Shown: positions 140 to 56,307, counted from the first letter of the stretch. The stretch is 64,000 nt of DNA from Candidatus Bathyarchaeia archaeon (GCA_049521055.1 JBEKPE010000001.1:44837-108836), one strand, 5' to 3'. Translations and numbers: made by a program. Notes: generated by a model not told the origin, from the letters alone.

Positions 140-811
140 GTGAAGTGTCCGTCTTGCGGTAATGAGATAACGGGAAATAGCAAATTCTGTACTAGCTGTG
201 GGTACAAGCTGGAAGGTGCCCCCGCACAAACTCCAACCGCTAAACCCACTTCTCCTTTTTCGGGAAGAGAGTACATCATCGAGCAGAAGATTGCTGCCCT
301 ACGCGATACGTTTGGAATCAAAGACAGAAGCGGTAACCTGCTCGCATATGTGAAGAAGAAACTGGTCAGCTGGGGTCCACAATTCTATTTCGAGACGCCA
401 GATGGCGGCAGGTTAGGTGAGATGAGGGGGAAAGTCCTAACGGTCAGACCTACTTTTGAAATCTACGACCCGCGAGGACTCGTAGCAGTAGTCAAGAAGA
501 AGGTCCTGAAACTGCTAGGTTCCGAATGGTGGCTTGAAGACTCGACCGGGAAGGAGATCGCGAGAATTAAGGGAAACATAACCGCGCACGAATTTTCCAT
601 TCAAAACCCGTCGGGTAGCACAATAGCTCAGATTCACAAGAAATGGGTGAGCATTCGCGATTCCTACGGCGTCGAAATCTCAAGTCAAGAAATCGACCCG
701 TACGTAATTCTGGCCTACGCGATAGCCATGGACCACGCCCAATTCAAAGGTGTACAGAAGGGTCTCAGCATAGGGCTCGGAGGCTTAGGCGGCATACCAA
801 CCGACTTCTAA
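140..811 (+). CDS. N-terminal zinc-ribbon plus LURP-one-related (DUF567/tubby-like) domain protein
   Basis: N-terminal CPSCG...CTSCG zinc ribbon and a body resembling the LOR/DUF567 fold. GTG start. Confidence 0.45.
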   Translation: MKCPSCGNEITGNSKFCTSCGYKLEGAPAQTPTAKPTSPFSGREYIIEQKIAALRDTFGIKDRSGNLLAYVKKKLVSWGPQFYFETPDGGRLGEMRGKVLTVRPTFEIYDPRGLVAVVKKKVLKLLGSEWWLEDSTGKEIARIKGNITAHEFSIQNPSGSTIAQIHKKWVSIRDSYGVEISSQEIDPYVILAYAIAMDHAQFKGVQKGLSIGLGGLGGIPTDF

Positions 812-890
812 CTGAAATGGAATGTTAGTGCGAACCTGTCTTCGGAAAATTACGCTCTGCCAAACTGCCAAAAAATAGGCGGGGCTGGAA

Positions 891-1135
891 TCAAATTCTC
901 TTGAGTTGGGCCAGCGTCTTCTCGTTCTTCACGTCACCAGTGTTCAGGGTTGATTTCGGTTCTATCAAAACAACGTGAACCTCTTCATTGGCAACTGGCT
1001 TATGCTCAACTCCTTTCGGAATTATGATAAACTCCCCCTCATCTAACCAAATGTCTTTGTCCCTTAGTTTGATCAGCAGTTTTCCTTTCTTTACAAGGAA
1101 TAATTCGTCCTCAGCCGCGTGTTTGTGCCAGGTTC
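891..1135 (-). pseudogene. cupin-domain gene fragment, N-terminus removed by IS insertion
   Basis: Minus-strand frame reads ...RTWHKHAAEDELFLVKKGKLLIKL...IIIPKGVEHKPVANEEVHVVLIEP...*. There is no in-frame start; the frame runs into the IS right end at 1136 and hits a stop inside it. Confidence 0.45.
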
Positions 1136-2444
1136 TGTTAACTCTTCGACTCGTGGCTTCGAGTTAGCTTCGTTGGATCGACTCTTAGGATTACCTTCGG
1201 CCATGTTGGGCCTGCATCGGGTTCCTTTACCATCGCTTCAATTCCAACGCCTTCCGACCGGGCGAACCTCACCCGCCCCGCCTGCTAATGTTCAATACGG
1301 CGACTAGGTCGCGGTCGAACATTTCTCGGCATCGCTGGCACCAGAGTTTTCGGCGTAGTTGTTTGCTCGATTGGAGTCTCTCCCCGCATCTCGGGCAAAC
1401 CCTGCTCGTGCCTCTGGTCTCAGACTTACTAAGCGTGATCACGGGTACACCCACCCAAGCGGCTTTGTATTCGATTTGCCGCTTAACTTCGTGAAAAGGC
1501 CAACTGTTCATTCGCGCACGGTAGCCCCTACCCTGCGAACTTCCTCTCCGATACAGTTTTCGGATGTCGCGAATATCCTCGAAGACAATTCCATGTCGGT
1601 TCTGGAGAGCTGACTCAACGACTCGTCTTGACACTATGTGGAGTAGCTGACGTATTCGGTTCTTTCTTCGTTCGCCGTACTTGCCGGTAATGGCAGTACG
1701 AGTTCGGGCATCATTGCGCCTAAAAGATCGTGCAATTTCCCTCGTCGTCTTGGCGATCTCAGATGCCTTTCCCATTTCATAGTACAAGATTTCTTCCGAG
1801 TTGCCTACGGTCAGGTTGTTGAGGTTCCTATCCACGCCCACAACCCCGGCCAATTGCTTGATCGGATCCACGTCTTTGCTGATGCATAACGACAAGGATT
1901 CTCGGGTCAGAGTGAAGGAACGTGCTCTAATCTTAGGTTCAGCTAGGGTTCGAAGTGTGTGCGCGTTTAATGGAATAGCGTATGTCTCCCTCCGCCCGAC
2001 AGGGACAAGTAGTTTGCCGTCCACGATTTTGAATCCGTAGCAGGAAGTTAACAGCACTTTCTTCAAGAATGGGTTCTTCGTCATGTGGCCGCGTTTGATA
2101 GATTTCTTTCGTGCTGCAAGGATTCCGGCAGCCTTGGAGCTTGCGCAGAGTTTGTAATATGACGGAAGGCGGAAGCCTCGAAGCTCTCGGTAAGATAGTA
2201 AGGAGAGTCTTTTCAACGATGACGCATCATTCGCCAACCCGATTCCGATGCAGATGTTCGTCATCTGCCTGAAAGATTCCATCAACCCGAGAGTGCACTC
2301 ATCGGGATGGAAGCGTTGCTTCACCGACTTCCTCACAAGCAAAGCTAAGCAAGAGACAGCCATCTCCTGAGCAACTTAAAATGTAGAGAGGAAACCGAAA
2401 CTACTCACGCCAAAATACCAGAACGCATGAGCCGCCAAGTTAAC
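1136..2444 (-). mobile_element. IS200/IS605-family TnpB-only element, copy 1 (degenerate)
   Basis: Ends are GGTTCTGTTAAC at 1130-1141 and ATGAGCCGCCAAGTTAAC at 2427-2444. These are homologous to the ends of copies 2 and 3, but the right-end inverted repeat is degraded. Confidence 0.6.
1269..2363 (-). CDS. tnpB: TnpB/OrfB RNA-guided endonuclease-like transposase-associated protein (C-terminal frame disruption)
   Basis: RuvC-like GVDRNLNN and E-containing IVFEDI motifs, C-terminal CPRCG...CQRC zinc finger and DRDLVAVLNI RuvC-III. Sequence downstream of the stop still encodes VRFA...EAMV in another frame, like copies 2 and 3. Confidence 0.8.
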   Translation of the reverse strand: MAVSCLALLVRKSVKQRFHPDECTLGLMESFRQMTNICIGIGLANDASSLKRLSLLSYRELRGFRLPSYYKLCASSKAAGILAARKKSIKRGHMTKNPFLKKVLLTSCYGFKIVDGKLLVPVGRRETYAIPLNAHTLRTLAEPKIRARSFTLTRESLSLCISKDVDPIKQLAGVVGVDRNLNNLTVGNSEEILYYEMGKASEIAKTTREIARSFRRNDARTRTAITGKYGERRKNRIRQLLHIVSRRVVESALQNRHGIVFEDIRDIRKLYRRGSSQGRGYRARMNSWPFHEVKRQIEYKAAWVGVPVITLSKSETRGTSRVCPRCGERLQSSKQLRRKLWCQRCREMFDRDLVAVLNISRRGG

Positions 2445-2521
2445 AATATTGAATCAAGTAAATTTCTGAGCTATGTTTACTTTCTCAAGTTTTGAGTGCT
2501 CACTCAAGGGACAGACCTGGC

Positions 2522-3415
2522 TTACTGTTTCTTTTCTGGCCAGTCGTAGAAACCTTTCCCGGTCTTTCTTCCCAGTAGGTTTGCGCGCACCATTTGTTTG
2601 AGTAGGTTGCTCGGGCGGAATTTTGGATCTCCAGTCTCGTTCACCATCACGTCCGTGATGAAGAGGTGGGTGTCGGCGCCCACGTAGTCAATCAGTTTCA
2701 GTGGCCCCATTGGCCAATTCAATCCTAGGGTAATTGCTTTGTCAATATCCTCCGGATCTGCAACCCCTTCCGCAACAAGGAATACGGCCTCGTTGAGGGC
2801 GGGAACTAGGATCCGGTTTACAATGAATCCTGGTGTATCCTTCTTGACTAGGACTGACTCTTTCCCAAGCTTAGCAGAAACTTGCTTGATTGTCTCTACT
2901 GTCTCATCCGAGGTTTTCAGCCCGCGGACAATCTCGATGAGTCGCATGAGTTGTGGGGGGTTGAAGAAGTGCATCCCGCAAACCTTCTCAGCCCTTGTCG
3001 TGGCGGCCCCAATCTCGGTTATGCTGATCGAGGACGTGTTCGACGCGATTATTGCGTGTGGGGGAGCATACTTGTCCGCCTCCGCAAGGACGGCTTTCTT
3101 GAGCGGTGGATTCTCGGTGACGGCCTCGATAACTAAATCCGCGTTCTGAACAGCCTGTTTCAGGTCCAGGGTGGGGTGAATTCTGTTGAGAATTTCTTTC
3201 GACTCAGCTTCGGTTATGTTTCCTTTCTTGACGAATCGTTGGAGGCTGTCTTTGATCATCTTCATGCCGTTATCGACGAACCGTTGCTCGATATCCCGCA
3301 TGCTAACTTCGAATTTGCCAGTTTGAGCGCAGACTTGGGCAATGCCATGGCCCATCAAACCAGCGCCCAACACACATACTCGCTTCACTTCGGTTCTGTT
3401 AACTTGTTGGCTCAT
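2522..3415 (-). CDS. 3-hydroxyacyl-CoA / 3-hydroxybutyryl-CoA dehydrogenase
   Basis: Rossmann VCVLGAGLMGHGIAQV N-terminus and a typical HBD C-terminal domain. The first 8 codons (MSQQVNRT) are IS-end sequence; the native start is probably the GTG near 3389. Confidence 0.85.
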   Translation of the reverse strand: MSQQVNRTEVKRVCVLGAGLMGHGIAQVCAQTGKFEVSMRDIEQRFVDNGMKMIKDSLQRFVKKGNITEAESKEILNRIHPTLDLKQAVQNADLVIEAVTENPPLKKAVLAEADKYAPPHAIIASNTSSISITEIGAATTRAEKVCGMHFFNPPQLMRLIEIVRGLKTSDETVETIKQVSAKLGKESVLVKKDTPGFIVNRILVPALNEAVFLVAEGVADPEDIDKAITLGLNWPMGPLKLIDYVGADTHLFITDVMVNETGDPKFRPSNLLKQMVRANLLGRKTGKGFYDWPEKKQ

Positions 3416-4641
3416 GGGGCTTCAACTCGTTAGCTCGCTTCCATCGACTTTCAGGATTACCTACTAAGGATTCCTGTACCATCGCTTCAACTGGAAGCGC
3501 GATTGGCGCGAACCTCACGCCTCTTGCTAGGATATTCCTAGCAGCGTTTACGTCTCGGTCTACGGTGAATCCGCAGCTCGGGCACTTGAGTTGTCGGCTC
3601 TCTTCGGGTTTACGCGCCATGCGCGACCCACACATCGAACACTTCACCGAAGTGCCAGACGGATTCACGTAGATGACTGGGATGCCTTCCCACTGGGCCT
3701 TGTATTCGATCTGACGCTGCAATTCAAAGTAACTCCAACCGTTCATCACCCCACGATAACCTCTGCACTGCCAGTTACCGTGCCGGTAAAGTTTCCTTAT
3801 GCCTGTCAGCTTCTCCATGACGATGCCAAACTCCCTGCCCTTCGCATCCTCTACGATCTGTTTTGAGGCGTTGTGGAGAATCCGCTTCACCTTCTCTTGT
3901 TGCTTCCGACCGTACTTGCTGGTGATTTCGCGGAGGATGCGCACATCGTTCCGCCTGATGCGGGAGCGTACCAGTCGGTAGGTAGCCTTTACCCTTGTCG
4001 CCTCGGTTAGTTCATGCTTCGCGCTGGAACCGTCCGTGGACGCCAATGTGACATTGTTCAGGTTTCGGTCGATGCCGATAAAACCACTCGGTCGGACCTC
4101 CGCGACCTCCTTCGCATATGTCAACGACAACTTGTCCTGGGTCAACGTAACCGAACGAACCTTGTACTTTCGAATAGTTGCTTGAACATGCGGCGTAATA
4201 GGAATTCTGATCGATTCCCCAGGATGGTACGGCAGAAGAAGACAGCCGTCCTTAATCTTGAATCCATAGCAGGTGGTCAAACGCAAACGTCGAACATGAG
4301 GAGCTGTCGGATTCTCTCCATGTCGAACCGTTCTGCGATAATTCCGGAGTATTCCAGTTACGCCGCTGATGGCGCATAGCTTGTAGTAGCTCATAGCGTC
4401 GTAGGTTGCAAGTTGTTTGTACGCTTTCACGGACAAGGACTTGAGGCTCGTGGCGTTCTCAGTCAAGCCAATCTGTATGCAAGTGTTCATCATTCGGCGG
4501 AACTCGTCAAGCATCAGTAGAATCTCGGGGCTGGGCGTGTAGTGCTGCTGAACTGCTTTGATCGCCCGCATAACTTAGCGTCCGCTTTCAATCTCTTTTA
4601 GGCATGAGAGGTCGGTGAAACCAATGAGCCGACAAGTTAAC
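3398..4641 (-). mobile_element. IS200/IS605-family TnpB-only element, copy 2 (1244 bp) with about 20-bp terminal inverted repeats
   Basis: GTTAACTTGTTGGCTCAT at 3398-3415 is the reverse complement of ATGAGCCGACAAGTTAAC at 4624-4641. Confidence 0.75.
3399..4571 (-). CDS. tnpB: TnpB/OrfB family protein (390 aa)
   Basis: GIDRNLNN, IVMEKLTGI, CSMCG...CPSCG zinc finger and DRDVNAARNI. About 78% aa identity to copy 3. Confidence 0.9.
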   Translation of the reverse strand: MRAIKAVQQHYTPSPEILLMLDEFRRMMNTCIQIGLTENATSLKSLSVKAYKQLATYDAMSYYKLCAISGVTGILRNYRRTVRHGENPTAPHVRRLRLTTCYGFKIKDGCLLLPYHPGESIRIPITPHVQATIRKYKVRSVTLTQDKLSLTYAKEVAEVRPSGFIGIDRNLNNVTLASTDGSSAKHELTEATRVKATYRLVRSRIRRNDVRILREITSKYGRKQQEKVKRILHNASKQIVEDAKGREFGIVMEKLTGIRKLYRHGNWQCRGYRGVMNGWSYFELQRQIEYKAQWEGIPVIYVNPSGTSVKCSMCGSRMARKPEESRQLKCPSCGFTVDRDVNAARNILARGVRFAPIALPVEAMVQESLVGNPESRWKRANELKPHEPTS

Positions 4642-4768
4642 GGAGCTCCATAGTCCATTTTTCAATCGAAATATGCTTTCCCATACAGGAGGCGCTTGGT
4701 TGGGCGTCATGGAAAGGCTCTGCTCGCGGTCGAGCCATATAGAGAGCCGTTACCACGGACGGCTGAGT

Positions 4769-6118
4769 CTATCGAAGCTGAGCTGCTACTTCCTTTACGG
4801 CGCCTTCGAAGATTTCCAGTCCTTCATCGATGATGTCGCGGGTTATGATGAGGGGGGGTGCGAAGCGCATCGAGGATTTTCCGGCAGTTATGATTGCTAA
4901 TCCTCGTTTGAAGCATTTGTTGGTTATGTCCTCCACTTCCTGAGCGGCTGGTTCCTTGGTTTCCGGGTCTTTGACGAATTCCACTCCGACCATCAACCCT
5001 TTGCCGCGCACGTCGCCTATTATGGGGTATTGCTGTTGCATTTCTTTCAGTCGCTTCATTAGGTACGTCCCTTGATGGGTCGCGTTCTCCATGAGCTTTT
5101 CATCCTTTATGATGCCAATCACTTGTAATGCGGCGGCGCAGGCTACAGGATTACCCCCAAACGTATTGGCATGAGAACCCCCTTCCCAATCCATGAGTTC
5201 CTGTTTAGCTACGGCGGCGCCGATTGGGAGGCCGGATGCAAGAGCCTTGGCGGTGGTTAGAATGTCAGGCGTTACGCCCCAGTGCTCTAAAGCGAACCAT
5301 CTACCGGTCCGCCCCATCCCAGATTGTATCTCGTCGTCAGCCAGTAGAATGTCATATTTGTCAAGTATTTTCTTCAAACGCTGGAAATAATCGTCGGGAG
5401 GAACCACGTAGCCGCTCTCGCCTTGAATTGGCTCCACAAACATTGCAGCAGTGTCTTCAGGAGGATGATATTTCTTGAGTACCTCTTCTTCTATGAAGTC
5501 GACGCACCACATGTCGCACTCCGGATACTTCAGCCCGAAGGGACAGCGGTAGCAGTAGGGATAAGGAACGTGGGTTACTTCTGGAACGAGCGGGAAAAAG
5601 TGTCTTCTCTGAACCGGCTTACTCGCAGTAAGCGCCATAGTTCCGAAACTTCTTCCATGAAACGCGCCGGTGTACGCTAAGAATAACGGTTTGCGAGTGT
5701 GCCAACGGGCCATCTTCATCGCGGCCTCGTTTGCCTCCGCACCGCTATTACAGAAGAACACTTTCTTAGGAAATGAACCAGGCGTAATCTTAGTCAGTTG
5801 CTCCCCTAGGTCAACGATTGGCTTATAGTAGAAATCGGTCCATGAATAGTGAATTAGTTTCTCAGCTTGATCCTTGATCGCTTTGACGACGCGCGGATGC
5901 GAATGCCCCACGGCCAAAACGACTAATCCCGAATTAAAATCTATGAACTCGTTACCGTCAACATCCTTAACGACGCATCCTGAACCAGAGTCTGCAACGA
6001 GAGGATACCAACGTACAACCGATTGCGACAAGATGGTCGCATCTTTCTGAAGCAATTCTCTCGCCTTAGGCCCGGGCGGAGTGACGACGATCTTATGTCG
6101 TTGAACTTTGGTCACCAT
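4769..6118 (-). CDS. class III PLP-dependent aminotransferase (GabT/ArgD-like)
   Basis: Aminotransferase class III architecture throughout (about 450 aa) with conserved-looking PLP-lysine region. Confidence 0.8.
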   Translation of the reverse strand: MVTKVQRHKIVVTPPGPKARELLQKDATILSQSVVRWYPLVADSGSGCVVKDVDGNEFIDFNSGLVVLAVGHSHPRVVKAIKDQAEKLIHYSWTDFYYKPIVDLGEQLTKITPGSFPKKVFFCNSGAEANEAAMKMARWHTRKPLFLAYTGAFHGRSFGTMALTASKPVQRRHFFPLVPEVTHVPYPYCYRCPFGLKYPECDMWCVDFIEEEVLKKYHPPEDTAAMFVEPIQGESGYVVPPDDYFQRLKKILDKYDILLADDEIQSGMGRTGRWFALEHWGVTPDILTTAKALASGLPIGAAVAKQELMDWEGGSHANTFGGNPVACAAALQVIGIIKDEKLMENATHQGTYLMKRLKEMQQQYPIIGDVRGKGLMVGVEFVKDPETKEPAAQEVEDITNKCFKRGLAIITAGKSSMRFAPPLIITRDIIDEGLEIFEGAVKEVAAQLR

Positions 6119-6256
6119 TATGAGTCACCGACTTGTTCCAACGCGAGCGCTTAGTCCGTGAATTGTAAAAGGCTTCCGTTCATCTCTCGTGCATAACACT
6201 GATGCATTGAGAGACAGGTTTCGTAGCTTTATGACAGAGCCGATATGTGGCCTCTA

Positions 6257-8113
6257 TCAGTTTATGATTAGAGGCACGATCCTTTGGCTGTCAACGTCAA
6301 AGAGCCCTTTGTCTGTAATTCTTGCGTGTGATATTACTGGAAGTGCGAGCGTGGAGATTATCAGTATGGTTCCGTAATCGACGAGTCCGAGTTGCTCCTC
6401 CACCTTTCTGAATGCCAACAGTTTACCTGCGACGGTCTCAGCCTTTTCTTCCGACATGAGGCCTGCTACCGGCAGTTCAACTTCAGCCAAAACTTTTCCT
6501 CCGTTCACTGCAACCAGCCCACCTTGGCACTCGATTAGAGTGTTCGCTGCCACCGCCATATCTGACGGGGTATTCCCCACAACAGTAAGGTTGTGTGAAT
6601 CATGTGAAATTGTTGTAGCCAAGGCGCCTTCTTTCAGGCCGAATCTATCCAGGAAGCCAAGCGACTTGTTTCTAGTCTTTCCGTGCCTTTCAAAAACGGC
6701 AACCGTTGCGCCATCGTGCTGCACAATATGGTCCTTGACAGTCACATCTTTTTCTTCAAAGTTGGTTAGGAAGCCCTGCATGGTTATCGTTCGGACTCTG
6801 ATTGATCCACTCTCTTTTTCGACCCGCACCTGGAAATCATCCGGCGTCACTCTCTGAAGTTTCACTGTGCGTGTTGCTTCTTTCGGGAAATGGGTTGTTG
6901 CAAGTTTTGTTACGAGCGTGCCATTCTCCGCTACGATTCTCCCGTTCGCGACAACCAACTTCACCTTGAACTCATTCAAGTCTTTGACTAGTAGAATGTC
7001 AGCGATTTTTCCTGGGCTTATGGCGCCGCGGTCGAATAGGCGAAGGTGTTTGGCTGGGAAGAGGGTTGCTGAGCGAACTGCATCTATTGGATCGAACCCG
7101 TTCTGTATCGCTTTGCGCACAACGTCGTCCAAATGTCCATCTCGCATGAGATCGTCTGGCATTGTGTCGTCGGTAACAAGCAGCAGGCCTTGCTTGCTGG
7201 GAAGATTGGACAGCAACTTGACTAATCCGGGAACGAGGGAGAATTTCCTTAGTTTCGCGAACATTCCTAGGCGGATTTCGCGGAGGATTATATCAAAATC
7301 AGCTTTGTAACCATGGTCTGCATCTACGGGAAAGTATTCGTGGTTTGCTTCAATTCCTGAGGCTGCGTAAGCGTTTGTTCCCTTTTCATCTAGATTCATG
7401 CAGTGACCATCGATAACGACTCCTGCCTCTCTGCCAGCCTTGACTATCTCAGTCATTCGTTTGTCGAGGTTGATCACACCACTGTAATCCATTACTTCAG
7501 CGAGGCCGATAACCCTCTCCCAACCAAGCATCTCTCTAACATCTGACACTTGGATTTCAGCCCCAGCCGTGTCCGCATTCAATACCGCGGGTACGCAGGT
7601 AGGAACGAGAACAAGGACCTTCAAAGGCAGACCTGCGCTGGAATCAAGCATCATCCTTACCCCAGCCTTCCCCAACACGTTCCCAATCTCATGCGGATCA
7701 ATGGCTACAGTAGTTGTCCCATGCGGGAGAACGGCTTCAGCAAATCGCGGTGGGGTAACCATACTGCTCTCAATGTGGAGATGCGAATCGATCAGGCCTT
7801 GAATGGCATACATTCCTTTCGCATCGAAAACATCCTTCGACTTAATTTCCTCTAGCTCCCCAACATAGGAGATTTTGTCACCACAAATCCCTATACTCGT
7901 CTCGTATTGCTCGCGCGTGTAAACGTTCACGAGCCGCACGTTTCTTAACACGAGATCGAACGGGGCGTCTCCGCGTGCAGTCTGAACCAGCCTTTCATAT
8001 GTCATTATTGTAATCATCCCGAATCTGGCGCAACCTAGATTTGGCTTCTGTGGACCGATCCCGGTGATGGCGCAGGTGGGTTCTAGTACCTCTTCGTTGT
8101 GCATTACTTTCAT
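6257..8113 (-). CDS. ade: adenine deaminase
   Basis: Amidohydrolase with the DSHLHIESSMVTP...HGTT...DPHEIGNVLG signature typical of adenine deaminase. Confidence 0.8.
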   Translation of the reverse strand: MKVMHNEEVLEPTCAITGIGPQKPNLGCARFGMITIMTYERLVQTARGDAPFDLVLRNVRLVNVYTREQYETSIGICGDKISYVGELEEIKSKDVFDAKGMYAIQGLIDSHLHIESSMVTPPRFAEAVLPHGTTTVAIDPHEIGNVLGKAGVRMMLDSSAGLPLKVLVLVPTCVPAVLNADTAGAEIQVSDVREMLGWERVIGLAEVMDYSGVINLDKRMTEIVKAGREAGVVIDGHCMNLDEKGTNAYAASGIEANHEYFPVDADHGYKADFDIILREIRLGMFAKLRKFSLVPGLVKLLSNLPSKQGLLLVTDDTMPDDLMRDGHLDDVVRKAIQNGFDPIDAVRSATLFPAKHLRLFDRGAISPGKIADILLVKDLNEFKVKLVVANGRIVAENGTLVTKLATTHFPKEATRTVKLQRVTPDDFQVRVEKESGSIRVRTITMQGFLTNFEEKDVTVKDHIVQHDGATVAVFERHGKTRNKSLGFLDRFGLKEGALATTISHDSHNLTVVGNTPSDMAVAANTLIECQGGLVAVNGGKVLAEVELPVAGLMSEEKAETVAGKLLAFRKVEEQLGLVDYGTILIISTLALPVISHARITDKGLFDVDSQRIVPLIIN

Positions 8114-8211
8114 TCGCCCATGCGGTACGATTCGTAACGTTCATTCTGGACTCACGTATGCTTCTATTCGCAACCCGTAGACCCGGAGTTCAAGCTGTCT
8201 CAAAGACTGTC

Positions 8212-8320
8212 CATGTGTTGGAGGGGTGTCAAACACCCCCCTGTCGGCTGTCTTACACCCGTACCCTTCTTTTCAAGTGGGACCAAAATCCCACCCGTCC
8301 CCCCCAGTTTCGAACTTCCT
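8212..8320. repeat. conserved hairpin element copy A (GGGGTGT-caa-ACACCCC followed by CTGTCTTACACCCGTAC...GGGACC)
   Basis: About 60-100 nt similar to 55650-55735, and partially to 31663-31705. Confidence 0.6.
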
Positions 8321-8328
8321 GGTAGACC

Positions 8329-8718
8329 CTATATCATATGGGCTTCAGCCAACCCACGAAAGTGAGGGTCACCGGTAACGACCTTCCCCTGCCGGTCTCG
8401 CGCAGTCGAGAGAACAATTGAGTCAGCTAGGCCCCATCCCTGAACTTTTTTCTTCATCGCGACATCAGTCTTAGCCGCTTCAACGGCCAAATTCTCATCA
8501 AGTGGAATAAGCGCGCTTCTTGACTTGATGAATGCTCTTCTGAGTTCAGCTTTTTGTTCATCTTCCGTTTTCAGAATCTTCGCGTATGTCTCCGCCAGAC
8601 AAATTGAGGGTGTGAGTTTCTCATACGCTTCCGTGTCGATGATCTGTTTGACTTTTTGGCCGGCTTCGGTTCCCATGAAATATTCAAGCCATGCATAGGA
8701 ATCCATGATGTACCTCAT
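8329..8718 (-). CDS. vapC: PIN-domain toxin VapC
   Basis: PIN-domain-like sequence about 129 aa long. It overlaps the upstream small gene by 4 bp. Confidence 0.7.
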   Translation of the reverse strand: MRYIMDSYAWLEYFMGTEAGQKVKQIIDTEAYEKLTPSICLAETYAKILKTEDEQKAELRRAFIKSRSALIPLDENLAVEAAKTDVAMKKKVQGWGLADSIVLSTARDRQGKVVTGDPHFRGLAEAHMI

Positions 8719-8900
8719 AAGCGGTCCCTATGGTCTCGCATGTCTTTCAGTGACGTCCTTCTCATTGTCCCGAACATACCCTCTCCCTTCAGAAGAGCTT
8801 CTGCAAGAATTGCATTGATAGCTTCGGACATGCCTCTGGGCCCGAACTTCTCCTTCAGGATCTCGTAGAGGTCTTCTCTAAGCAATACCGTTGTCTTCAT
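8715..8900 (-). CDS. vapB: VapB-like antitoxin (RHH/AbrB-like small DNA-binding protein)
   Basis: 61-aa ORF overlapping vapC by 4 bp, in typical TA operon geometry. Confidence 0.5.
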   Translation of the reverse strand: MKTTVLLREDLYEILKEKFGPRGMSEAINAILAEALLKGEGMFGTMRRTSLKDMRDHRDRL

Positions 8901-9009
8901 TACGGATACGGTACCTTAACCCTAAACATAGATGTTTAAGCCTTACGGCAAGCGAGTCGAGAATAGGTTTGCGATTCCACTCCCGGAGCCTTACGGGATG
9001 CTGATGTGT

Positions 9010-9034
9010 TGCCAAACAATGAGGCAACACAATC
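9010..9034. terminator. 8-bp-stem hairpin GTGTTGCC-loop-GGCAACAC downstream of permease gene
   Basis: Perfect inverted repeat seen in sequence. Its terminator role is inferred. Confidence 0.3.
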
Positions 9035-9094: not shown

Positions 9095-10657
9095 TCATTC
9101 GGGGGGGATTTCTTTGTAGGCGAGTGTTATGTCGATTCCTCGTTTTCCGTGGTAGTACTTGGAAATTCCGTATAGGACCAGGCCTGTTAGAAATGAGGCT
9201 GCTACGTATGAGTAGGCGAATGTGTTTCCGCCCCAAACCGATGGAAACGCTAGGAACTGGTAAAGCAGGTATAGAAATACGAGTGAGGTGAAGGTTCCAC
9301 AGGATAACAGTAACCATTTCGCCTGTCCCTTCTCCTTCCTAACTCCATACACCGCTCCTGCTGCTCCGATGGAGGCGAAGTAAATCATCGAGGCGATGAC
9401 GCTTCCGTACAGGGATACCAAAGTTCCATAGAGGAAGGAGGCCCCGCCGATCAGGAATACAACTACGACGAGATCAATCAGGTGTGCCACTACGGGGGAA
9501 CCCCATTTGGGAGTGACGTACGCAATTTTTGATGGTAGGAAGCGGTCGAATGCTTCGGCGAAGAGATACCGAGAAACGAGAATTATCCCGTATGCAAGGA
9601 TAGCGACGTTCCAGAGAATCCATCCTAGCCCAATGAACCATGACAAGGCGAGGTTGTTGGATACTCCCATCGCTAGAGTCCAAAAGTTGAACGAGTACGT
9701 ATACACCAAAGTGGAGTTGGCCAAGGCGGCCGTAATGAATTCGAACCCTCCTACAAAGTACATCGTCGCGAACGAACCGGTAACGAGTAAGAAGATGATG
9801 AATGCTGCGATTGGGATGTTCCATTTGAGGGTTTTATTTCCGCCTTTGAGTTCAGATGCTACGGCTGGGCCTGCGAAGACCCATGGGTAAACGAAGATTG
9901 CGAAGAACGGAAGCATCATAATTGTGGCATTGAAATCGAACGTAGACCCTGTATAAGACGCAGCGACCTTTGCGTAGGTCGTATTCGCGCCGATGCTGTT
10001 GAGGAAGTCCATGTAACTCGACACTCCTGCCCTACCGGCAGAGAGGAGTGCGAGGTTACCGGCGATCATACTAATGACACCGACAGTAGTGCATACTGCT
10101 ACAAGTTTGTATCCGAACTTGGGTCTCCAGATATTCACGCCTATCATTACACCGAAGATGATGGCCCCAAGGATGAACTGGGACACAACGTCAGCCCCTT
10201 GAATGTTCCCAGGTAAAGCGAGACCAAGGCAACTTGTGATTCCGCAACTTGTGTAACCCAAAGAGGCTCCTACTGAACCGATTGCAAAGATTGTTGAAAG
10301 CGTAATCAGCGCAAGATATGCCATCGTCTCGAGGGCTGGACCCATAAACGCTAGGGATCCTCCCAACCATCCGCCGAATGTCCGTGAAAGCCAGACATAA
10401 TCTCCGCCCGTTCTGGGTATGCGTTGTGTCATCATCGTGTAGACGACAATTTGTGGGATAGAAAGCACGAACGCAATAATCGATCCATACACAAGGTTTA
10501 CGCCAGATATGGTTGGCAGCAAAACCATCGTGAAACCCACAACAGCAAGCGCCGCTCCGGCTGACATGTCAGCTATGTTGAGAGCGACCGCGTCAAAGAG
10601 AGAGACGTTCTTGATTAGTCCGGTAGCTTCACGAACGAAAACAGCACCTTTAGCCAA
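9095..10657 (-). CDS. APC-superfamily amino acid/polyamine permease
   Basis: About 12 predicted TM segments and APC-like glycine-rich helices. Confidence 0.8.
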   Translation of the reverse strand: MAKGAVFVREATGLIKNVSLFDAVALNIADMSAGAALAVVGFTMVLLPTISGVNLVYGSIIAFVLSIPQIVVYTMMTQRIPRTGGDYVWLSRTFGGWLGGSLAFMGPALETMAYLALITLSTIFAIGSVGASLGYTSCGITSCLGLALPGNIQGADVVSQFILGAIIFGVMIGVNIWRPKFGYKLVAVCTTVGVISMIAGNLALLSAGRAGVSSYMDFLNSIGANTTYAKVAASYTGSTFDFNATIMMLPFFAIFVYPWVFAGPAVASELKGGNKTLKWNIPIAAFIIFLLVTGSFATMYFVGGFEFITAALANSTLVYTYSFNFWTLAMGVSNNLALSWFIGLGWILWNVAILAYGIILVSRYLFAEAFDRFLPSKIAYVTPKWGSPVVAHLIDLVVVVFLIGGASFLYGTLVSLYGSVIASMIYFASIGAAGAVYGVRKEKGQAKWLLLSCGTFTSLVFLYLLYQFLAFPSVWGGNTFAYSYVAASFLTGLVLYGISKYYHGKRGIDITLAYKEIPPE

Positions 10658-13330: not shown

Positions 13331-13543
13331 CAGACCTTAAACCGCCTGGGTAGCATGCTGAATTTCGACCATTTAAAGGCTGATTTCAATCAGTAAAGGT
13401 GTGGAGGCATGTATTCAAGGCAAAAAGCAGTCGCTAAGACCGATGCAAGAATTCTCCTAGCCGACGGCCTAGCCTCGTATGGCCCAGCCGCAGAAACCCT
13501 AAGCCGCCTAAGTAACATAGGCTAAAAATGCATCATTGGTTCT

Positions 13544-14787
13544 GTTAACTTGTTGGCTCATGAGGCCTTAACTCGTTAACTCGCTTCCATCGACTTTCAG
13601 GATTACCTTCCGAGGGTTCCTGTACCATCGCTTCAACTGGAAGCGCGATTGGCGCGAACCTCACGCCTCTCGCCAGAATGTTTCTGGCCGCGTTCACATC
13701 CCTATCTACGTTCACCCTGCACGATGGACATCTCAGCAGTCGTTTCTCTTCGGGTATTCTCGCCATGCGAGACCCACATATCGAACACTTCGCTGACGTC
13801 CCGTGCGGATAAACATAGATAACTGGCAAACCTTCCCAGCGAGCTTTATACTCGATCTGACGTTGTAACTCCGCATACGACCAAGAATTCATTCTCCCTC
13901 GATACCATCGACCTTGACCGTTTCCACGTTGATACAACTTCCGAACCCCAGTGAGTTGCTCCATGACGATGCCGAAATCGCGGGTCTTGGCTTGTTGCAC
14001 AATCATTTTGGATGCTTGATGGAGAATTCGCTTAACCTTCTCCTGTTGCTTCCGACCATACTTGCTGGTTATTTCGCGGCGGGTGCGCACATCGTTTCTC
14101 CTCATGTGAGATCGTATCTCGCGGTAAGTAGCCTTTACCCGTGTCGCGCCGGAGAGGTCATGTTTCATGATCGAACCGTTCGTGGAGGCTAATGTAACAT
14201 TGTTCAGGTTCCGATCAATGCCGATGAAGCCATCCGGCTTGATCGCCGCCACATGTTTCGCATATGCAAGCGACAGCTTGTCTTGTGTCAACGTGACCGA
14301 ACGAACTGTGTGTTTACGAATTGTTGCCTGAACATGGGGGGTTAGAGGGATTCTGATCCTTTCCTTGGGATGATGGGGTAGTAACAAGTAACCATTCTTG
14401 ATCTTGAAACCGTAGCATGTGGTCAACCGCAAACGTCGAACATGCGGGGTTGTTGGCTTCTTCCCATATCTTGTAGTTCTACGATAGTTCCGGAGGATAC
14501 CTGTTGCGCTGCTCATGGCGCATAGCTTGTAGTAGCTCATAGAATCGTACTCCGTAAGTTGTTTGTACGATTTCAGAGACAGAGCCTTGAGGCTCGTGAC
14601 ATTCTCCGCCAGACCAACCTCTATGCAGGTGTTCGTCATCTGGCGGAAATCGTTAAGCATCCGTAGAATCTCGGGCCTGGGTTCGTAGTATTGTTGAACG
14701 GTTTTGATCGCCCGCATAGCCTAACCTCAACTTTCAATGTCTATTAGCGATGAGAGGTCAGTGAAACCAATGAGCCGATAAGTTAAC
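13544..14787 (-). mobile_element. IS200/IS605-family TnpB-only element, copy 3 (1244 bp) with terminal inverted repeats
   Basis: GTTAACTTGTTGGCTCAT at 13544-13561 and ATGAGCCGATAAGTTAAC at 14770-14787. Confidence 0.75.
13545..14717 (-). CDS. tnpB: TnpB/OrfB family protein (390 aa)
   Basis: Same motifs as copy 2, with about 78% aa identity. Confidence 0.9.
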   Translation of the reverse strand: MRAIKTVQQYYEPRPEILRMLNDFRQMTNTCIEVGLAENVTSLKALSLKSYKQLTEYDSMSYYKLCAMSSATGILRNYRRTTRYGKKPTTPHVRRLRLTTCYGFKIKNGYLLLPHHPKERIRIPLTPHVQATIRKHTVRSVTLTQDKLSLAYAKHVAAIKPDGFIGIDRNLNNVTLASTNGSIMKHDLSGATRVKATYREIRSHMRRNDVRTRREITSKYGRKQQEKVKRILHQASKMIVQQAKTRDFGIVMEQLTGVRKLYQRGNGQGRWYRGRMNSWSYAELQRQIEYKARWEGLPVIYVYPHGTSAKCSICGSRMARIPEEKRLLRCPSCRVNVDRDVNAARNILARGVRFAPIALPVEAMVQEPSEGNPESRWKRVNELRPHEPTS

Positions 14788-14825
14788 AGAGCCCTAATTT
14801 TCATTACTACGGGCTAAGTGAAAGC

Positions 14826-16152: not shown

Positions 16153-16818
16153 CTACGTAACTACAGCTTGCTCTAAGGTATCGGCCCTCGCCTCAACCAA
16201 TTCGAGATTGAAAGTGTCTTCAAACTTCTTTCGAACCTGCTCTTTTACGTCACGGAGGTTCAGGTCTGTGCCGAGCAAGGCTTTCATCGAGGTCATGGTT
16301 GAACCAGAGAACCCGCACGGGTTGATCTTGTAGAAGTAATTTAAGTCCGTGTTCGCGTTGAGCGCGAATCCGTGAAAGCTTACCCAGTTTCTAATCGCTG
16401 CACCGATTGAAGCAATCTTCTTGCTACCCACCCACACACCAGTTTGCTCTCCTCGCCCCCCAGCGATGCCGAACTCCCTAATCGTCAGGATGAGTGTTTG
16501 CTCGATGTTTCTTAGGAATCCATGAATGTCTCGCTTTCTCTCATTCAAGTCTAGAATTGGATAACCCACTATCTGTCCCAAGCCGTGGTACGTCCACTGG
16601 CCGCCCCGTTCTATTCGGAATACTGGGACGCCATCGATTTGGGGAGGGATGTCACCAGAGACTGCTTTGCCTACCGTGAATACGTGTGGATGTTCCACGA
16701 GGATTAAGCTGTCCGGAATAAGTTTCCTTGCCCGAAGATCAACGAGCTTGCGCTGGAGTTCCCATACTTGTGCGTATTCTCGTTGGCCGAGGTCGAGTAG
16801 GTTTCCTTTCGTTGTCAT
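16153..16818 (-). CDS. lipB: octanoyltransferase LipB
   Basis: BPL/LPL catalytic domain. LILVEHPHVFTVGK is LipB-like. Confidence 0.8.
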   Translation of the reverse strand: MTTKGNLLDLGQREYAQVWELQRKLVDLRARKLIPDSLILVEHPHVFTVGKAVSGDIPPQIDGVPVFRIERGGQWTYHGLGQIVGYPILDLNERKRDIHGFLRNIEQTLILTIREFGIAGGRGEQTGVWVGSKKIASIGAAIRNWVSFHGFALNANTDLNYFYKINPCGFSGSTMTSMKALLGTDLNLRDVKEQVRKKFEDTFNLELVEARADTLEQAVVT

Positions 16819-18218
16819 TTCTGTAGGATGTGAATCGCTTTTCCTTTTGCTGCTTCCGCTGCCTCCATCACACTTTCTGGCAAAGTGGGGTGTGGGTGAA
16901 CTGTGAGTCCAATGTCCTCTAATGTTGCTCCCATTTCTATGGCGAGAGCTGCTTCGCTAATTAGGTCTGAGGCTTCGGAGCCAACTATGTGGACACCGAG
17001 CACTAGATCGGAGCTTTTGTCGGCGACTATCTTGGCGAATCCCTCGGTTTCGCCTGCGAGGAGTGCGCGTCCCAAGGCTGTAAATGGAAACTTGCCGACG
17101 ATTGGGTCGTAGCCTTTTTCTTTTGCTTGCGATTCGGTGAGGCCGACGGTTGCGATTTCAGGGTCGGTGAATATGACTCCAGGGATCGCGTGAAAGTCAG
17201 CTTCACTGCTCATTCCCGCGATAACCTCCGCAGCGACGATTCCTTCCTTGGATGCTTTGTGTGCGAGCATGGGTGGGCCTACTACGTCCCCTATCGCGTA
17301 GACGCCCGGTAAGTTGGTTTGCATTTTCTTGTTGACTTGAATGAACCCGTGCGAATCAGTTTGGATCCCGACTTTTTCCAGGCCGATTTCGTCGCTGTTT
17401 GGGCGTCTGCCTACGGTGACTAAGACCTTGTCAGCGTCAAATGCGCCTTCCTTTCCGTCCTCTAGGGTTGCGTAGATCTTACCGTCGCGAAATTCCTTCG
17501 CCTTGGATTTGACATGGTATTCAATGCCAAGTTTTCGAAGTGACCGTTCGACGACCCTGACTAGGTCGATGTCGGTTCCGGGGAGAAGTTGGTCTAACAT
17601 TTCGATTATGGTTACTTTGGTTCCAAGCTGGGCGTACATAGTTCCCATCTCCAATCCGGTCACTCCTCCCCCGATTATGGCCAACCTCTTGGGGACCTGT
17701 TGTAGTGACAATGCTTCGGTGGAGCTGATTATGCTGGTTCCGTTGAACTTGAAGGTAGGAAGGTCGTAGTAACGCGAACCCGTGGCTATGATGATGTCCT
17801 TTGCTTCGATGATTTCCGTCCCAGTCGTGCTCTTGACTTCGAGCTGGTTAGCTGCTATGAATTTCCCGGTTCCTTTTACGAGCTTGACGTTGTTTCCTTT
17901 GAGTAAGTAATCAATACCGGATACTAGGCGATCGACCACACCCTGTTTCCAAGCTTGCACTTTAGCAAAATCTACGCTGACTCCAGTTACCTCTAGGCCA
18001 ATCTGTTTGGCTGCTTCGACTCGCTGTTTTAGTTTAGCGACGCGGATAAGTGCCTTCGAGGGTATGCACCCAATGTTTAGGCATACGCCACCCAGCTTTT
18101 CTTTCTCTATGAGGACTGTTTCCTTCCCGAGCTGCCCGAGTCGTATGGCCGCAACATAGCCACCCGGTCCACTCCCAAGCACAGCAGCCTCGATCTTCTG
18201 AGTCATTCTAACCACCAA
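16815..18218 (-). CDS. lpdA: dihydrolipoyl dehydrogenase (E3)
   Basis: GSGPGGYVAA FAD motif, redox-active GGVCLNIGCIPSK and dimerisation domain. Confidence 0.9.
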   Translation of the reverse strand: MVVRMTQKIEAAVLGSGPGGYVAAIRLGQLGKETVLIEKEKLGGVCLNIGCIPSKALIRVAKLKQRVEAAKQIGLEVTGVSVDFAKVQAWKQGVVDRLVSGIDYLLKGNNVKLVKGTGKFIAANQLEVKSTTGTEIIEAKDIIIATGSRYYDLPTFKFNGTSIISSTEALSLQQVPKRLAIIGGGVTGLEMGTMYAQLGTKVTIIEMLDQLLPGTDIDLVRVVERSLRKLGIEYHVKSKAKEFRDGKIYATLEDGKEGAFDADKVLVTVGRRPNSDEIGLEKVGIQTDSHGFIQVNKKMQTNLPGVYAIGDVVGPPMLAHKASKEGIVAAEVIAGMSSEADFHAIPGVIFTDPEIATVGLTESQAKEKGYDPIVGKFPFTALGRALLAGETEGFAKIVADKSSDLVLGVHIVGSEASDLISEAALAIEMGATLEDIGLTVHPHPTLPESVMEAAEAAKGKAIHILQK

Positions 18219-18411: not shown

Positions 18412-18434
18412 CGCACCATTAGACCCACACACAC
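18412..18434. repeat. palindromic repeat family copy R1 (CGCACCATTAGACCCACACACAC)
   Basis: Matches the GCGyACCAyTAGmCCCACACACAC consensus. Confidence 0.6.
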
Positions 18435-18728: not shown

Positions 18729-18764
18729 GGTGTGTGTGCGCACAAGTGATGCCACACACACTAG
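18729..18764. repeat. palindromic repeat family copy R2 (GGTGTGTGTGCGCACAAGTGATGCCACACACACTAG)
   Basis: GTGTGTG / CACACAC arms. Confidence 0.6.
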
Positions 18765-19764: not shown

Positions 19765-19786
19765 CAAGCCATGAACGGTCGTCGTC

Positions 19787-19810
19787 GCGCACCAAGTATA
19801 CCACACACAC
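19787..19810. repeat. palindromic repeat family copy R6 (GCGCACCAAGTATACCACACACAC)
   Basis: Right half of the consensus. Confidence 0.5.
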
Positions 19811-20530: not shown

Positions 20531-20567
20531 TTAGTGTGTGTGCGTCGAGTGGTGGGCACAGACACAA
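20531..20567. repeat. palindromic repeat family copy R3 (TAGTGTGTGTGCGTCGAGTGGTGGGCACAGACACAAG)
   Basis: Diverged copy. Confidence 0.5.
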
Positions 20568-25178: not shown

Positions 25179-25210
25179 TAGTGTGTGTGCGCACCACTAG
25201 CCCACACACA
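25179..25210. repeat. palindromic repeat family copy R4 (TAGTGTGTGTGCGCACCACTAGCCCACACACAC)
   Basis: Best full-length copy. Followed by TTTT. Confidence 0.65.
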
Positions 25211-25278
25211 CTTTTACAAGCCACGCTAACGCTGGGAACGACGACAGTGGCAGACGACGATATGAACTGTGTTTGGAT

Positions 25279-26357: not shown

Positions 26358-26390
26358 GGTGGGTGTGCGTACCATTAGACCCACACACAC
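26358..26390. repeat. palindromic repeat family copy R5 (GGTGGGTGTGCGTACCATTAGACCCACACACAC)
   Basis: Near-identical to R1 over ACCATTAGACCCACACACAC. Confidence 0.65.
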
Positions 26391-27174: not shown

Positions 27175-28431
27175 TTAGTCCGTCTCGAGAAGAAGGAGCT
27201 TTGGATCTTCTAGGTATTGTTTGATTGCGTTTACGAAACGGGCTGCCATTGCGCCATCCAATACTCTGTGGTCGAAGGATAGGGAGAGGTAGGTCATGTC
27301 GCGGATTGTGATTTGGTTGTCTTTGACGACTGGCCGTTTGGTGATTTTATGTAGCCCAAGTATCGCGACTTCTGGGTAATTGATTATTGGGGTAGCGAAC
27401 ACTCCGCCGATTCCACCTACGTTGGTTATTGTAAAGGTGCTTCCCTGAACTTCATTCAACGCCAACTGACCTGCATGAGCTTTCTCGCTCAGGGTTGCAA
27501 TTTCTGTTGCGAGTTGAGTTATCGATTTGCGATCGGCATCTTTGACCACCGGAACTACTAACCCCGACTCAGTGTCAGTCGCTATTCCAATATTGTAGTA
27601 TTTCTTGAGCACTATCTCCTCTTTTTCGTCGTCCAAACTGGAGTTTAGGTACGGGTACTGTTTCAGTGCCGGAATTAGCGCCTTCATGACGAAGGGCAGG
27701 TAGGTCAACTTTACTCCACGCTTCTCAGCGGCAGCCTTCGCCGTCTCTCTCAGGTGGACGACTTCGGTCATGTCAACTTCGTCCACGTGGGTTACTTGTG
27801 CCGCCGCATTCTTGGATTTGAGCATATGTTCCGCAACTTTTCTTCGGATTCCGCGTAACGGAACCCGCTCCTCAACACCACGCGGCCCAGAAGTGGTCAC
27901 GGTTACAGCCGCGACCGCTCCCCCTAGCTGTTTGAACCGTTGCACGTCCTCGTCTGTAATTCGGCCTCCGCGGCCAGTTCCCTGGACAACAGATAGGTCT
28001 ACGCCAAGATCTCTCGCAAGCTTTCGAGTCGCAGGTGTCGCTAAGACTTCTTCGGGTTTCCGTGAAACTTGAGGGGGGGTTGTTAGTGGGATTTCTTGGG
28101 GCCTAGCAATCGTGGGTGTTTTCGCGGGTGTGGGAAGAGATGGTTTCGTGGCGACGGGGGTTCTTTCTGATCCCGGAACACTTGGTTGTCCACCTTTCTC
28201 TTCTATTGAGAGGAGAGCTTGTCCTACCTTGACGACTTCGCCCTCTTTGGCCATGAGTTTCTGGATTGTTCCTTGCTTGGGGGAAGGTATCTCTACGTTG
28301 ACCTTATCGGTCATGATCTCGACGAGGGGCTGGTTCTCCTTAATCGAGTCTCCTTCTTTCACAAGCCATTTGACAACCTCGCCTTCAGCCACGCCTTCAC
28401 CTATGTCCGGAAGGCGAAACTCGTAGACCAA
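27175..28431 (-). CDS. 2-oxoacid dehydrogenase E2 dihydrolipoamide acyltransferase
   Basis: N-terminal lipoyl domain (IMTDKVNVEIPSP), PSBD segment and C-terminal catalytic DHRVLDGA. Confidence 0.9.
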   Translation of the reverse strand: MVYEFRLPDIGEGVAEGEVVKWLVKEGDSIKENQPLVEIMTDKVNVEIPSPKQGTIQKLMAKEGEVVKVGQALLSIEEKGGQPSVPGSERTPVATKPSLPTPAKTPTIARPQEIPLTTPPQVSRKPEEVLATPATRKLARDLGVDLSVVQGTGRGGRITDEDVQRFKQLGGAVAAVTVTTSGPRGVEERVPLRGIRRKVAEHMLKSKNAAAQVTHVDEVDMTEVVHLRETAKAAAEKRGVKLTYLPFVMKALIPALKQYPYLNSSLDDEKEEIVLKKYYNIGIATDTESGLVVPVVKDADRKSITQLATEIATLSEKAHAGQLALNEVQGSTFTITNVGGIGGVFATPIINYPEVAILGLHKITKRPVVKDNQITIRDMTYLSLSFDHRVLDGAMAARFVNAIKQYLEDPKLLLLETD

Positions 28432-31662: not shown

Positions 31663-31705
31663 GGGTGGGATACACCCTTTGGGGGGGTGTGACCCACCCT
31701 CGGCG
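31663..31705. repeat. diverged copy C of GC-rich hairpin element (GGGTGGGATACACCC / GGGGGGGTGTGACCCACCCTCGG)
   Basis: Weaker similarity to copies A and B. Lies about 100 bp upstream of lipA. Confidence 0.35.
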
Positions 31706-31894
31706 TTCTGAACTTTCACAACCGGATGTAGTAGTCGGCTACTACATCCGACGAAGCATGGCCCACCGCTACCCGAATGGCAGAAGGGTCCGTGCCAAAG
31801 AAGATCCATGGTGCGGCACCTTCATCGTAATAGGGAAGGCGATTGCAAGGGAGGCTACAGTTGGTTAGGCGGACAAGTCGGGGTTTGTTTGTGA

Positions 31895-55078: not shown

Positions 55079-55132
55079 CGTTGCAGGCCTAGATTACAGA
55101 CTGGCCTGCCTCTTCTTTAAGACTAGGAAAGC

Positions 55133-55432: not shown

Positions 55433-55649
55433 CCTGACTCCCCTCTAATTCAGATGCAGAGATCAGCCCCGAGTTATTTCAACGTTCCATCAAGTCTAAC
55501 ATCACATTCAAACCGGGAAATTCAAGCTCGAATTTGACCAATTACTTCCGAACGACATTGATGGAGTGCGAATTACGCTCCTTCGCTTGAGGGCTTGATG
55601 GGGTATGGATCGAATGGCGAATTATGGTTCGTAACCCGATCCTAGGAAA

Positions 55650-55735: not shown

Positions 55736-55800
55736 TGGCGCAAGCCCGGATTTGTCACCACTGCAAGCTCGTTCTGCAAGAATATTCTCAAAGAGTTTAA

Positions 55801-56301: not shown

Positions 56302-56307
56302 CCGATC

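Follow-up and report, generated by a model that had tools for sequence, protein, structure and literature searches.

The window analysed here, a 64,000-nt stretch of DNA from a Candidatus Bathyarchaeia archaeon, contains two copies of a short hairpin-containing element, which we interpret, with a probability of about 0.62, as a low-copy, lineage-restricted, non-coding interspersed repeat of REP/MITE-like character, moved or recombined at the DNA level, often marking the borders of acquired cassettes, and present as a passenger at ade and Elf1. Comparison of loci shows that this repeat has been placed at many unrelated chromosomal sites, that relatives only slightly more distant lack it at the corresponding positions, and that it recurs at the edges of lineage-specific inserted cassettes, especially those carrying toxin-antitoxin genes. 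The two repeat cores are located as follows:

8213-8265, plus strand: repeat core of copy A (exact pattern matches; covariance model, 58.6 bits; nhmmer, 49.5 bits)
55649-55698, plus strand: repeat core of copy B (exact pattern matches; covariance model, 49.4 bits)

The sequences quoted in a first-pass annotation of this DNA for 8212-8265 and 55650-55706 are present, and its description of a conserved hairpin-containing element is upheld by pattern and covariance-model evidence far beyond chance. The hairpin half GGGGTGTCRAACACCCCC matches exactly only at 8223-8240 and 55658-55675 in the window, and allowing up to three mismatches adds a single match, the minus-strand palindromic echo of copy B (0.04 expected per window). 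The tail half CTGTCTTACAMCCGTAC matches only at 8248-8264 and 55681-55697 (0.09 expected per window); the expectations for all element patterns searched were 0.02-0.09 per window. The covariance model, built from 26 distinct family members and used on the window with filters off, gives E-values of about 3e-15 for copy A and 1e-12 for copy B, within a range of 1e-12 to 1e-19 across copies. Further copies, whose absence the annotation took as the sign of a chance similarity, occur at more than 20 additional loci. A near-identical orthologue of copy A is present in a metagenome locus (L011), copy B is found in identical form in L003, and diverged orthologues of copy B lie upstream of Elf1 in L024-L029. 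Similarity between copies A and B is confined to about 42-55 nt. An adapter or assembly artefact, considered since CTGTCTTACA partly resembles the Tn5 mosaic end, was rejected in view of the diverged orthologous copies in independent assemblies.

Organization of the repeat

The family core has the form (A)GGGTGT-CAA-ACACCCCCC-N6-7-(C/G)TGTCTTACA-(GCCGCC), with a minimal unit of about 42 nt. It is composed of two half-units of about 22 nt, GTGTCAAACAC-CCCCC and CTGTCTTACAG-CCGCC, each comprising a TGTC-NN-ACA mini-palindrome followed by a C-rich tail, spaced by approximately two helical turns. The first mini-palindrome is extended into a GC hairpin with a stem of 6-9 bp and a 3-nt loop (CAA, CGA, AAG or AGG). 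The bases 5' of the stem read NNAG (GGAG, TTAG, TGAG, CGAG, CTAG and others), and its 3' side is followed by a run of C.

The hairpin of copy A (8223-8229, loop 8230-8232, 8233-8239) has a stem of 7 bp and is followed by the C-run, a spacer of 6-8 nt and the second half-site CTGTCTTACA at 8248-8257. In copy B the hairpin occupies 55656-55664 and 55668-55676 around the loop 55665-55667, with CTGTCTTACA at 55681-55690. The annotation had given stems of 7 and 8 bp; the former is correct for copy A, while in copy B the 8 bp are extended by a C-G pair to 9 bp in all.

Distribution and genomic context

Among 185,579 representative genomes, the two-part pattern was strictly matched at one locus, in a Bathyarchaeota MAG (L001), and 22 loci were recovered from metagenomes of peat and bog with a looser pattern. 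Profile and covariance-model matches to the family score 38-73 bits. Second copies were recognized in L002 by the profile and, in diverged form, in L009 by the covariance model; the window, L002 and L009 thus hold two copies each, always in direct orientation. The left flanks of the loci are unrelated, and the right flanks are related within subfamilies only. The canonical copy is absent from IMG/VR, where the number of matches to a loose 17-base pattern (23) does not exceed chance and one weak model match (L044, 25.9 bits) falls within an ORF of a phage and has 35 nt inserted in its loop; the element is likewise absent from the phage and plasmid collections searched. A literature search for the motif returned primers only. 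Judged from these searches, the repeat appears restricted to a narrow group of peat-dwelling Bathyarchaeia.

Most copies are located just past the 3' ends of genes, many of them 24-190 nt after the stop codon and often between convergent genes. Four copies (A, B and those in L001 and L015) precede the start of a gene, by 30-220 nt. The neighbouring genes are unrelated in function, encoding an HtrA-like protease, NcsA/TtcA-like and UbiX-like proteins, enolase, thymidylate kinase, aminotransferases, PckA, luciferase-like oxidoreductases, and PIN, RHH, VOC and SnoaL-like proteins; these names come mostly from reading the translations, with Pfam support for PIN, RHH and the aminotransferases. The orientation of the element relative to its neighbours varies. 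The same upstream gene ends next to the element in L020 and in L009 (about 85% identity over its 3' end), and some 45 nt past the stop codon the element points one way in the former and the other way in the latter. The gene-upstream position emphasized in the annotation holds in part: copy A precedes the likely start of ade by about 200 nt and copy B lies in a divergent spacer, but copy A is also located 64 nt past the vapC stop codon, and the copies at other loci are mostly downstream of genes.

A third, weaker copy had been proposed upstream of lipA. In this region (about 31663-31709) neither half of the element is matched at up to three mismatches, and the scores are 2.9 bits with the nhmmer profile and 10.4 bits (minus strand, E of about 0.2) and 7.6 bits (plus strand) with the covariance model, comparable to what the palindrome of copy A yields on its reverse strand. 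By these scores the region does not belong to the family. The stretch 31663-31760 upstream of lipA contains G-rich hairpins of its own, GGGTGGGATACACCC and GGGTGTGACCCACCC, and a perfect 11-bp hairpin GGATGTAGTAG-tcgg-CTACTACATCC (about 31724-31749) that is not a family member.

Copy A and the insert upstream of adenine deaminase

Copy A lies within DNA that separates an amino-acid permease gene from ade in the window:

8070-9030 (boundaries approximate), minus strand: lineage-specific insert of about 960 nt between the permease and adenine deaminase (comparison with L032-L034; Pfam PIN)

The insert comprises a palindromic putative operator (about 9003-9029), an antitoxin-like ORF (8715-8900), a PIN/VapC gene (8329-8718, minus strand) and copy A; the permease gene occupies 9095-10657. 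In L032, L033 and L034, whose adenine deaminases are 81-88% identical to that of the window, the distance between the upstream gene (an amino-acid permease in L033 and L034) and ade is about 130-140 nt, as compared with about 1.1 kb in the window, and this interval contains neither a PIN gene nor the element. By this comparison copy A arrived with the vapBC insert of about 960 nt. It is located about 140 nt inside the insert, not at its edge, and on the far side of vapBC there is no second copy, only the different palindrome TGTGTTGCC-N9-GGCAACACA at 9003-9029. This palindrome lies about 100 nt upstream of the antitoxin-like ORF and is probably the toxin-antitoxin operator. An imperfect inverted pair of 13-15 nt (8185-8197 and 8305-8319) surrounds copy A alone and is not common to other copies. 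At both copies A and B the intergenic DNA of the relatives is too diverged to yield clean empty-site boundaries.

The longest ORF of adenine deaminase starts at 8113 and codes for 618 aa, while nearly all homologues, covering 94% of it, have 582-583 aa. The real start is therefore probably near 8008, the longest ORF being about 35 codons too long, which places copy A about 200 nt, rather than 99 nt, upstream of ade. A 19-nt similarity between TGGCGCAACCTAGATTTGG (8027-8045) and TGGCGCAAGCCCGGATTTG (55737-55755), both on the plus strand and agreeing at 15 of 19 bases, is found about 170 nt to the left of copy A and about 40 nt to the right of copy B. At locus A it falls partly within a block conserved upstream of ade in element-free relatives, and it may be due to chance.

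Copy B and its orthologues

Elf1 (55133-55432, minus strand) and an ORF of 166 aa diverge from the spacer that contains copy B, and the copy lies within the following segment:

55494-55802, plus strand: lineage-specific intergenic segment around copy B (alignment with syntenic loci; bounded by the conserved GTTATTTCAACGTTCCAT and TGAATACGAAAGCGTATCC)

Relatives of this locus were retrieved through Elf1 homologues, independently of the element sequence, and retain the gene order DP1 / Endo_dU / Cdc6 / MarR-like / ORF / Elf1 / DP2. The close group L024-L029 carries the segment with the element at the orthologous place. In the more distant syntenic loci L030 and L031 the covariance model gives no match, and the spacers upstream of Elf1 are 160 and 213 nt long, respectively, against 368 nt in the window.

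Between copy B and L024 or L027 the core is 76% identical and the flanks 66-79%; among L024, L025 and L027 the corresponding values are 89-92% and 88-98%. The changes include the replacement of the CGA loop by AAG or AGG, a stem break in L025 and a TTACA to TCACA change in L027. Three pattern-selected pairs of loci (L006/L008, L017/L018 and L014/L019) have cores better conserved than their flanks, a comparison biased by the manner in which these pairs were found; the orthologues of copy B are the sole unbiased ones, and they evolve no slower than their flanks. Near-identical cores across loci, combined with neutral decay at each of them, form the pattern left by repeated insertion from active sources.

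Among the proteins encoded in the window are PolD DP2, Elf1, Orc1/Cdc6 and Alba, and the nearest protein homologues carry the label Candidatus Bathyarchaeia. The replication cluster of the window (51665-61646) comprises PolD DP2, Elf1, a MarR-like protein, Orc1/Cdc6 (58195-59424), Endo_dU and PolD DP1, with synteny conserved in relatives. The spacer preceding orc1/cdc6 (57633-58194), together with an inverted repeat (57805-57831 and 58354-58380), is a candidate replication origin. Copy B, at a distance of 2.5 kb, does not appear to be part of it. An origin-recognition box, considered for the 2.5-kb distance of copy B from orc1/cdc6, was rejected, as copies of the repeat lie far from origins and the order of dyad and G-string differs.

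Cassettes bordered by the repeat

Two loci contain cassettes bracketed by direct copies. In L002, an insert of 3.3 kb with genes for a class I/II aminotransferase and PckA has a copy on either side, each as part of a 148-nt unit (94% identity between the two). Outside these units lie the genes of a class III aminotransferase and a 3-hydroxyacyl-CoA dehydrogenase, which are direct neighbours in L032 and L034. The 148-nt duplication exceeds the family-level homology on both sides, and the empty site of L032 contains roughly the last 38 nt of it; this extent fits homologous recombination through the repeat better than cutting specific to the ends of the element. In L009, two direct copies flank a vapBC operon. 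The PIN proteins of copy A and L009 are only 27% identical, so the two cassettes are independent. In L012, L014, L016, L017, L018 and L019 a homologous RHH gene, or what remains of it, abuts the element with its 3' end, and this arrangement recurs in at least four contexts. Altogether, the 3' end of a small accessory gene faces the TGTCTTACA side of the element in at least eight independent cases, the genes being two different PIN genes and those for RHH, VOC, SnoaL-like and LLM proteins, a 161-aa ORF and PckA.

The L019 locus (451-7647) is rich in toxin-antitoxin genes (PIN, MazE-like, UPF0175, RHH), and a gene for a T4-type terminase large subunit adjoins the RHH gene that abuts the element, which suggests that this locus is a provirus or integrated element.

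One copy is intragenic. In L013 the element is located in frame within a cyclase/kynurenine-formamidase-like gene, where 42 nt (GGGGTGTCAAACACCCCCCTACAAGCTGTCTTACAGCCGCCC) stand in place of 33 nt of a variable loop, as judged from two homologues, with conserved codons on both sides. This replacement bounds the minimal unit at 42 nt. Target-site duplication is absent from the junctions, and the unit substitutes for sequence rather than being simply added. A protein from the ENA collection (P0219) is 99% identical to that of L013, which argues against an assembly artefact. An RNA gene or an operator would hardly account for such an intragenic copy.

A coding function of the element itself was considered and rejected: several frames read through it, the ten substitutions between the L002 copies show synonymous bias in no frame, and the RHH ORFs enter it in different frames.

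Comparison with known elements

In the way it works, the repeat would be most like the bacterial REPs, though it lacks their defining tag. REPs are elements of about 20-40 bp with a GC stem of 5-13 bp and a very short loop, in many cases CMA; they lie for the most part 3' of coding regions, now and then in frame inside one, their families are sometimes small, and the survey describing them covers bacterial phyla only (PMC3733652). The repeat agrees with them in its stem of 6-9 bp, its 3-nt loop, CAA or CGA and comparable to the CMA type, and its unit of about 42 nt including the tail. It is likewise found downstream of ORFs and includes one in-frame copy, as do REPs when the intragenic RPE-type units of Rickettsia are counted. 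It differs in lacking the GTAG/CGTC tag (no GTAG in 26 copies, the flank being NNAG), in having a conserved 3' tail of 25 nt with the second mini-palindrome, in its archaeal host, and in its arrangement: REPs often form inverted dimers (REPINs/BIMEs), whereas the copies described here stand alone or in direct pairs and never head to head. No RAYT gene (Y1/HUH) was found among the ORFs scanned, which were about 49 of the roughly 60 long ORFs of the window, a few neighbours of other copies and the gene tables of L024-L035.

The repeat also shares features with MITEs, being short, non-coding, interspersed and intergenic, with presence/absence differences between relatives and a common flank of 100-150 nt in some subfamilies. 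MITEs are known in archaea too, in Sulfolobus and haloarchaea. The repeat departs from them in having neither consistent terminal inverted repeats nor target-site duplication and in a minimal unit of 42 nt, below the typical length of a MITE, and no parent IS was identified.

The ends of IS200/IS605 elements carry a sub-terminal hairpin and a tetranucleotide cleavage site, such as TTAC in IS608. The repeat is similarly strand-asymmetric, with a hairpin, a linker of 13-16 nt and a TTAC-containing motif at which cleavage would be putative; its paired copies are likewise direct and not inverted, and TnpB-type elements are present in the same genome. Y1 TnpA was not seen, and the ends of the resident TnpB elements are unrelated and of inverted-repeat type.

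Integron attC sites, including those of archaeal integrons (PMC9668308), provide the fourth comparison. The likenesses are the ability to form a hairpin, location downstream of small accessory ORFs in fixed orientation, toxin-antitoxin cargo and direct brackets. The unit of 42 nt is shorter than the 55-140 nt of attC and lacks separated R''/R' cores; GTCAAAC fits RYYYAAC at six of seven positions and lies inside the hairpin. There are no arrays beside intI, the repeat being dispersed among housekeeping genes.

How the repeat may move

Our preferred reading is that the repeat acts as a DNA-level substrate of a transposase or recombinase supplied in trans, or else as portable homology for recombination, in which case the palindromic half-sites or the hairpin would be the feature recognized. 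After insertion each copy would decay neutrally, and the copies at ade and Elf1 would be passengers and not regulators. The hairpin followed by a conserved TTAC-containing motif resembles REP or IS200/IS605 substrates, and the two palindromic half-sites resemble binding sites of recombinases or transposases; on these grounds our preferred guess for the enzyme is either an HUH-type protein acting on a hairpin plus cleavage motif, as for REP and IS200-like elements, or a serine or tyrosine recombinase.

Several observations stand against a mobile repeat. No transposase or recombinase gene was found beside any copy, and the ends of the three TnpB elements of the window are unrelated to the repeat. 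Neither terminal inverted repeats nor target-site duplications accompany the copies, whose number is apparently low. The three pattern-selected pairs have cores conserved above their flanks, within the bias noted for them, and the L002 duplication overruns the family homology. A DNA-binding or RNA role may apply to some copies.

Alternative explanations

An att- or attC-like cassette-capture site, at which accessory cassettes carry or target the element, a dedicated recombinase acts and solo copies represent empty sites, overlaps with our preferred reading and is possible, if unlikely, as a separate explanation. The orientation of at least eight accessory genes with their 3' ends towards the TGTCTTACA side and the direct copies bracketing the inserts of L002 and L009 speak for it, and the spacing of the half-sites would be appropriate for a recombinase that binds DNA as a multimer. 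Integrons, those of archaea included, typically carry toxin-antitoxin and similar cassettes (PMC9668308). Against this stand the lack of an adjacent recombinase gene, with no integrase detected among the window ORFs scanned, and the dispersal of the copies outside integrase-side arrays. The unit is far shorter than attC and has no separated RYYYAAC/GTTRRRY cores, the boundaries of the L002 duplication differ from the element ends, copy B and the L013 copy are free of cassettes, and copy A is about 140 nt inside its insert. The bolder proposal of an archaeal cassette capture that is integron-like in its logic and not in its parts, with vapBC, RHH and metabolic cassettes exchanged at a dispersed 42-nt element by a recombinase or HUH enzyme encoded elsewhere, we regard as doubtful.

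A role at the RNA level, as a small structured RNA or as a 3'-UTR, terminator or stabilizer hairpin cotranscribed with neighbouring genes, is improbable. The position of a stable GC triloop hairpin mostly 24-190 nt after stop codons is in its favour, as are two stem variants, a U.G pair that preserves pairing on the plus strand in the second copy of L002 (L002b) and a double change of G-C to A-U in L018, and the T-rich tracts 3' of the element in L006, L008 and copy A. The termination of transcription in archaea depends on U-tracts, and most copies lack one. The compensatory stem change reported in the annotation proved to be one-sided, with the extra 5' G (an A-to-G change) of the longer stem facing an invariant C-run. 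Four of seven stem pairs are invariant among the 26 distinct copies, a figure of little weight either way since the search pattern itself fixed most stem bases, and in 20 of the 26 the bases of the outer pair (columns 10 and 26 of the alignment) do not pair. The single-base variants in L002b and in L025, where a C.A mismatch breaks the stem, favour opposite strands, that of L025 being compatible with the opposite strand only. The unpaired positions (the AG before the stem, the C-run and TGTCTTACA) are as well conserved as the stem, and covariation among the 26 copies is essentially nil.

Other analyses point in the same direction. Rfam 15 gave nothing in the window at gathering thresholds and nothing at the element in seven loci at E-values up to 10. 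In folds of 150 nt on both strands the small hairpin alone recurs, with z-scores from -2.3 to +0.9 and ordinary energies, so that the copies have no extended fold in common. A scan for tRNA and tmRNA genes found none, and derivation from a tRNA fragment or from an att site within a tRNA gene was rejected, a tRNA-like arm being absent by inspection. No conserved promoter element precedes the repeat, and none can, because the left flanks are unrelated, with a stop codon at a distance of 24 nt in L017 and a coding flank in L013. The element occurs in both orientations downstream of genes and once in frame within a gene. With little covariation, no Rfam match, varied orientation, an in-frame copy and no excess of conservation, the original proposal of a small structured RNA or regulator-binding hairpin under structural selection is unsupported.

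We consider it very improbable that the element is a transcription-factor operator, that is, a regulon motif for ade, Elf1/PolD and other genes. Its two TGTC-NN-ACA palindromes about 22 bp apart look like dimer-binding operators, and the four copies that precede gene starts (A, B, L001 and L015) do so at distances of 30-220 nt. However, most copies are downstream of genes or between convergent ones, the neighbouring genes have unrelated functions, the same promoters lack the element in close relatives, the unbiased orthologues show no excess conservation, and one copy is intragenic. Finally, a chance similarity or the relic of a single duplication in this genome, which might be read into two copies per 64 kb with similarity limited to about 42-55 nt, can practically be dismissed in view of more than 20 loci in independent assemblies, expectations of 0.02-0.09 per window and E-values of 1e-12 to 1e-19.

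Other elements in the window

Two further groups of elements are present in the window:

18412-18434, 18729-18761, 19778-19810, 20533-20565, 25181-25211 and 26358-26390, plus strand: second hairpin repeat
1269-2363, 3399-4571 and 13545-14717, minus strand: TnpB-like ORFs (Cas12f1-like TNB domain)

The second hairpin repeat, GGTGTGTGTGCGCAC-N7-9-CCACACACAC, has a stem of about 9 bp and is unrelated to the first; all its six copies are on the plus strand. They are located in an island of lower GC content (about 47%) at approximately 18.3-26.5 kb, and several of them lie 14-43 nt after the stop codon of a plus-strand ORF. Of the eight island ORFs tested, seven gave no match in Pfam. The island interrupts a 2-oxoacid dehydrogenase cluster between E3 (16815-18218) and E2 (27175-28431). 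It looks like a cassette array; an integrase was not detected.

Two complete TnpB units of about 1.25 kb (about 3392-4644 and 13538-14793) end in inverted repeats of 24-27 nt, GGTTCTGTTAACTTGTTGGCTCATGGG, and one TnpB copy splits an aminotransferase/3HCDH gene pair that is adjacent in relatives. TnpA is absent from the TnpB elements of the window. A link between these three elements and the hairpin repeat of copies A and B, as omega-RNA or transposon-end remnants, was rejected, their ends being unrelated.

Implications

The Bathyarchaeia are abundant, mostly uncultured archaea of sediments and peat, whose mobile DNA is poorly described. The repeat would mark the points at which toxin-antitoxin and metabolic cassettes enter otherwise syntenic regions, and could serve both as a marker of recent gene gain and loss and as a lead to the enzyme responsible for its movement. 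It also calls for caution in annotation, as conserved hairpins of this kind should not be assigned to riboswitches, small RNAs or operators. If the cassette-site reading is true, the element would represent a new route of gene capture in archaea, and the island of the second hairpin repeat would suggest that cassette exchange at hairpin sites is general in these genomes.
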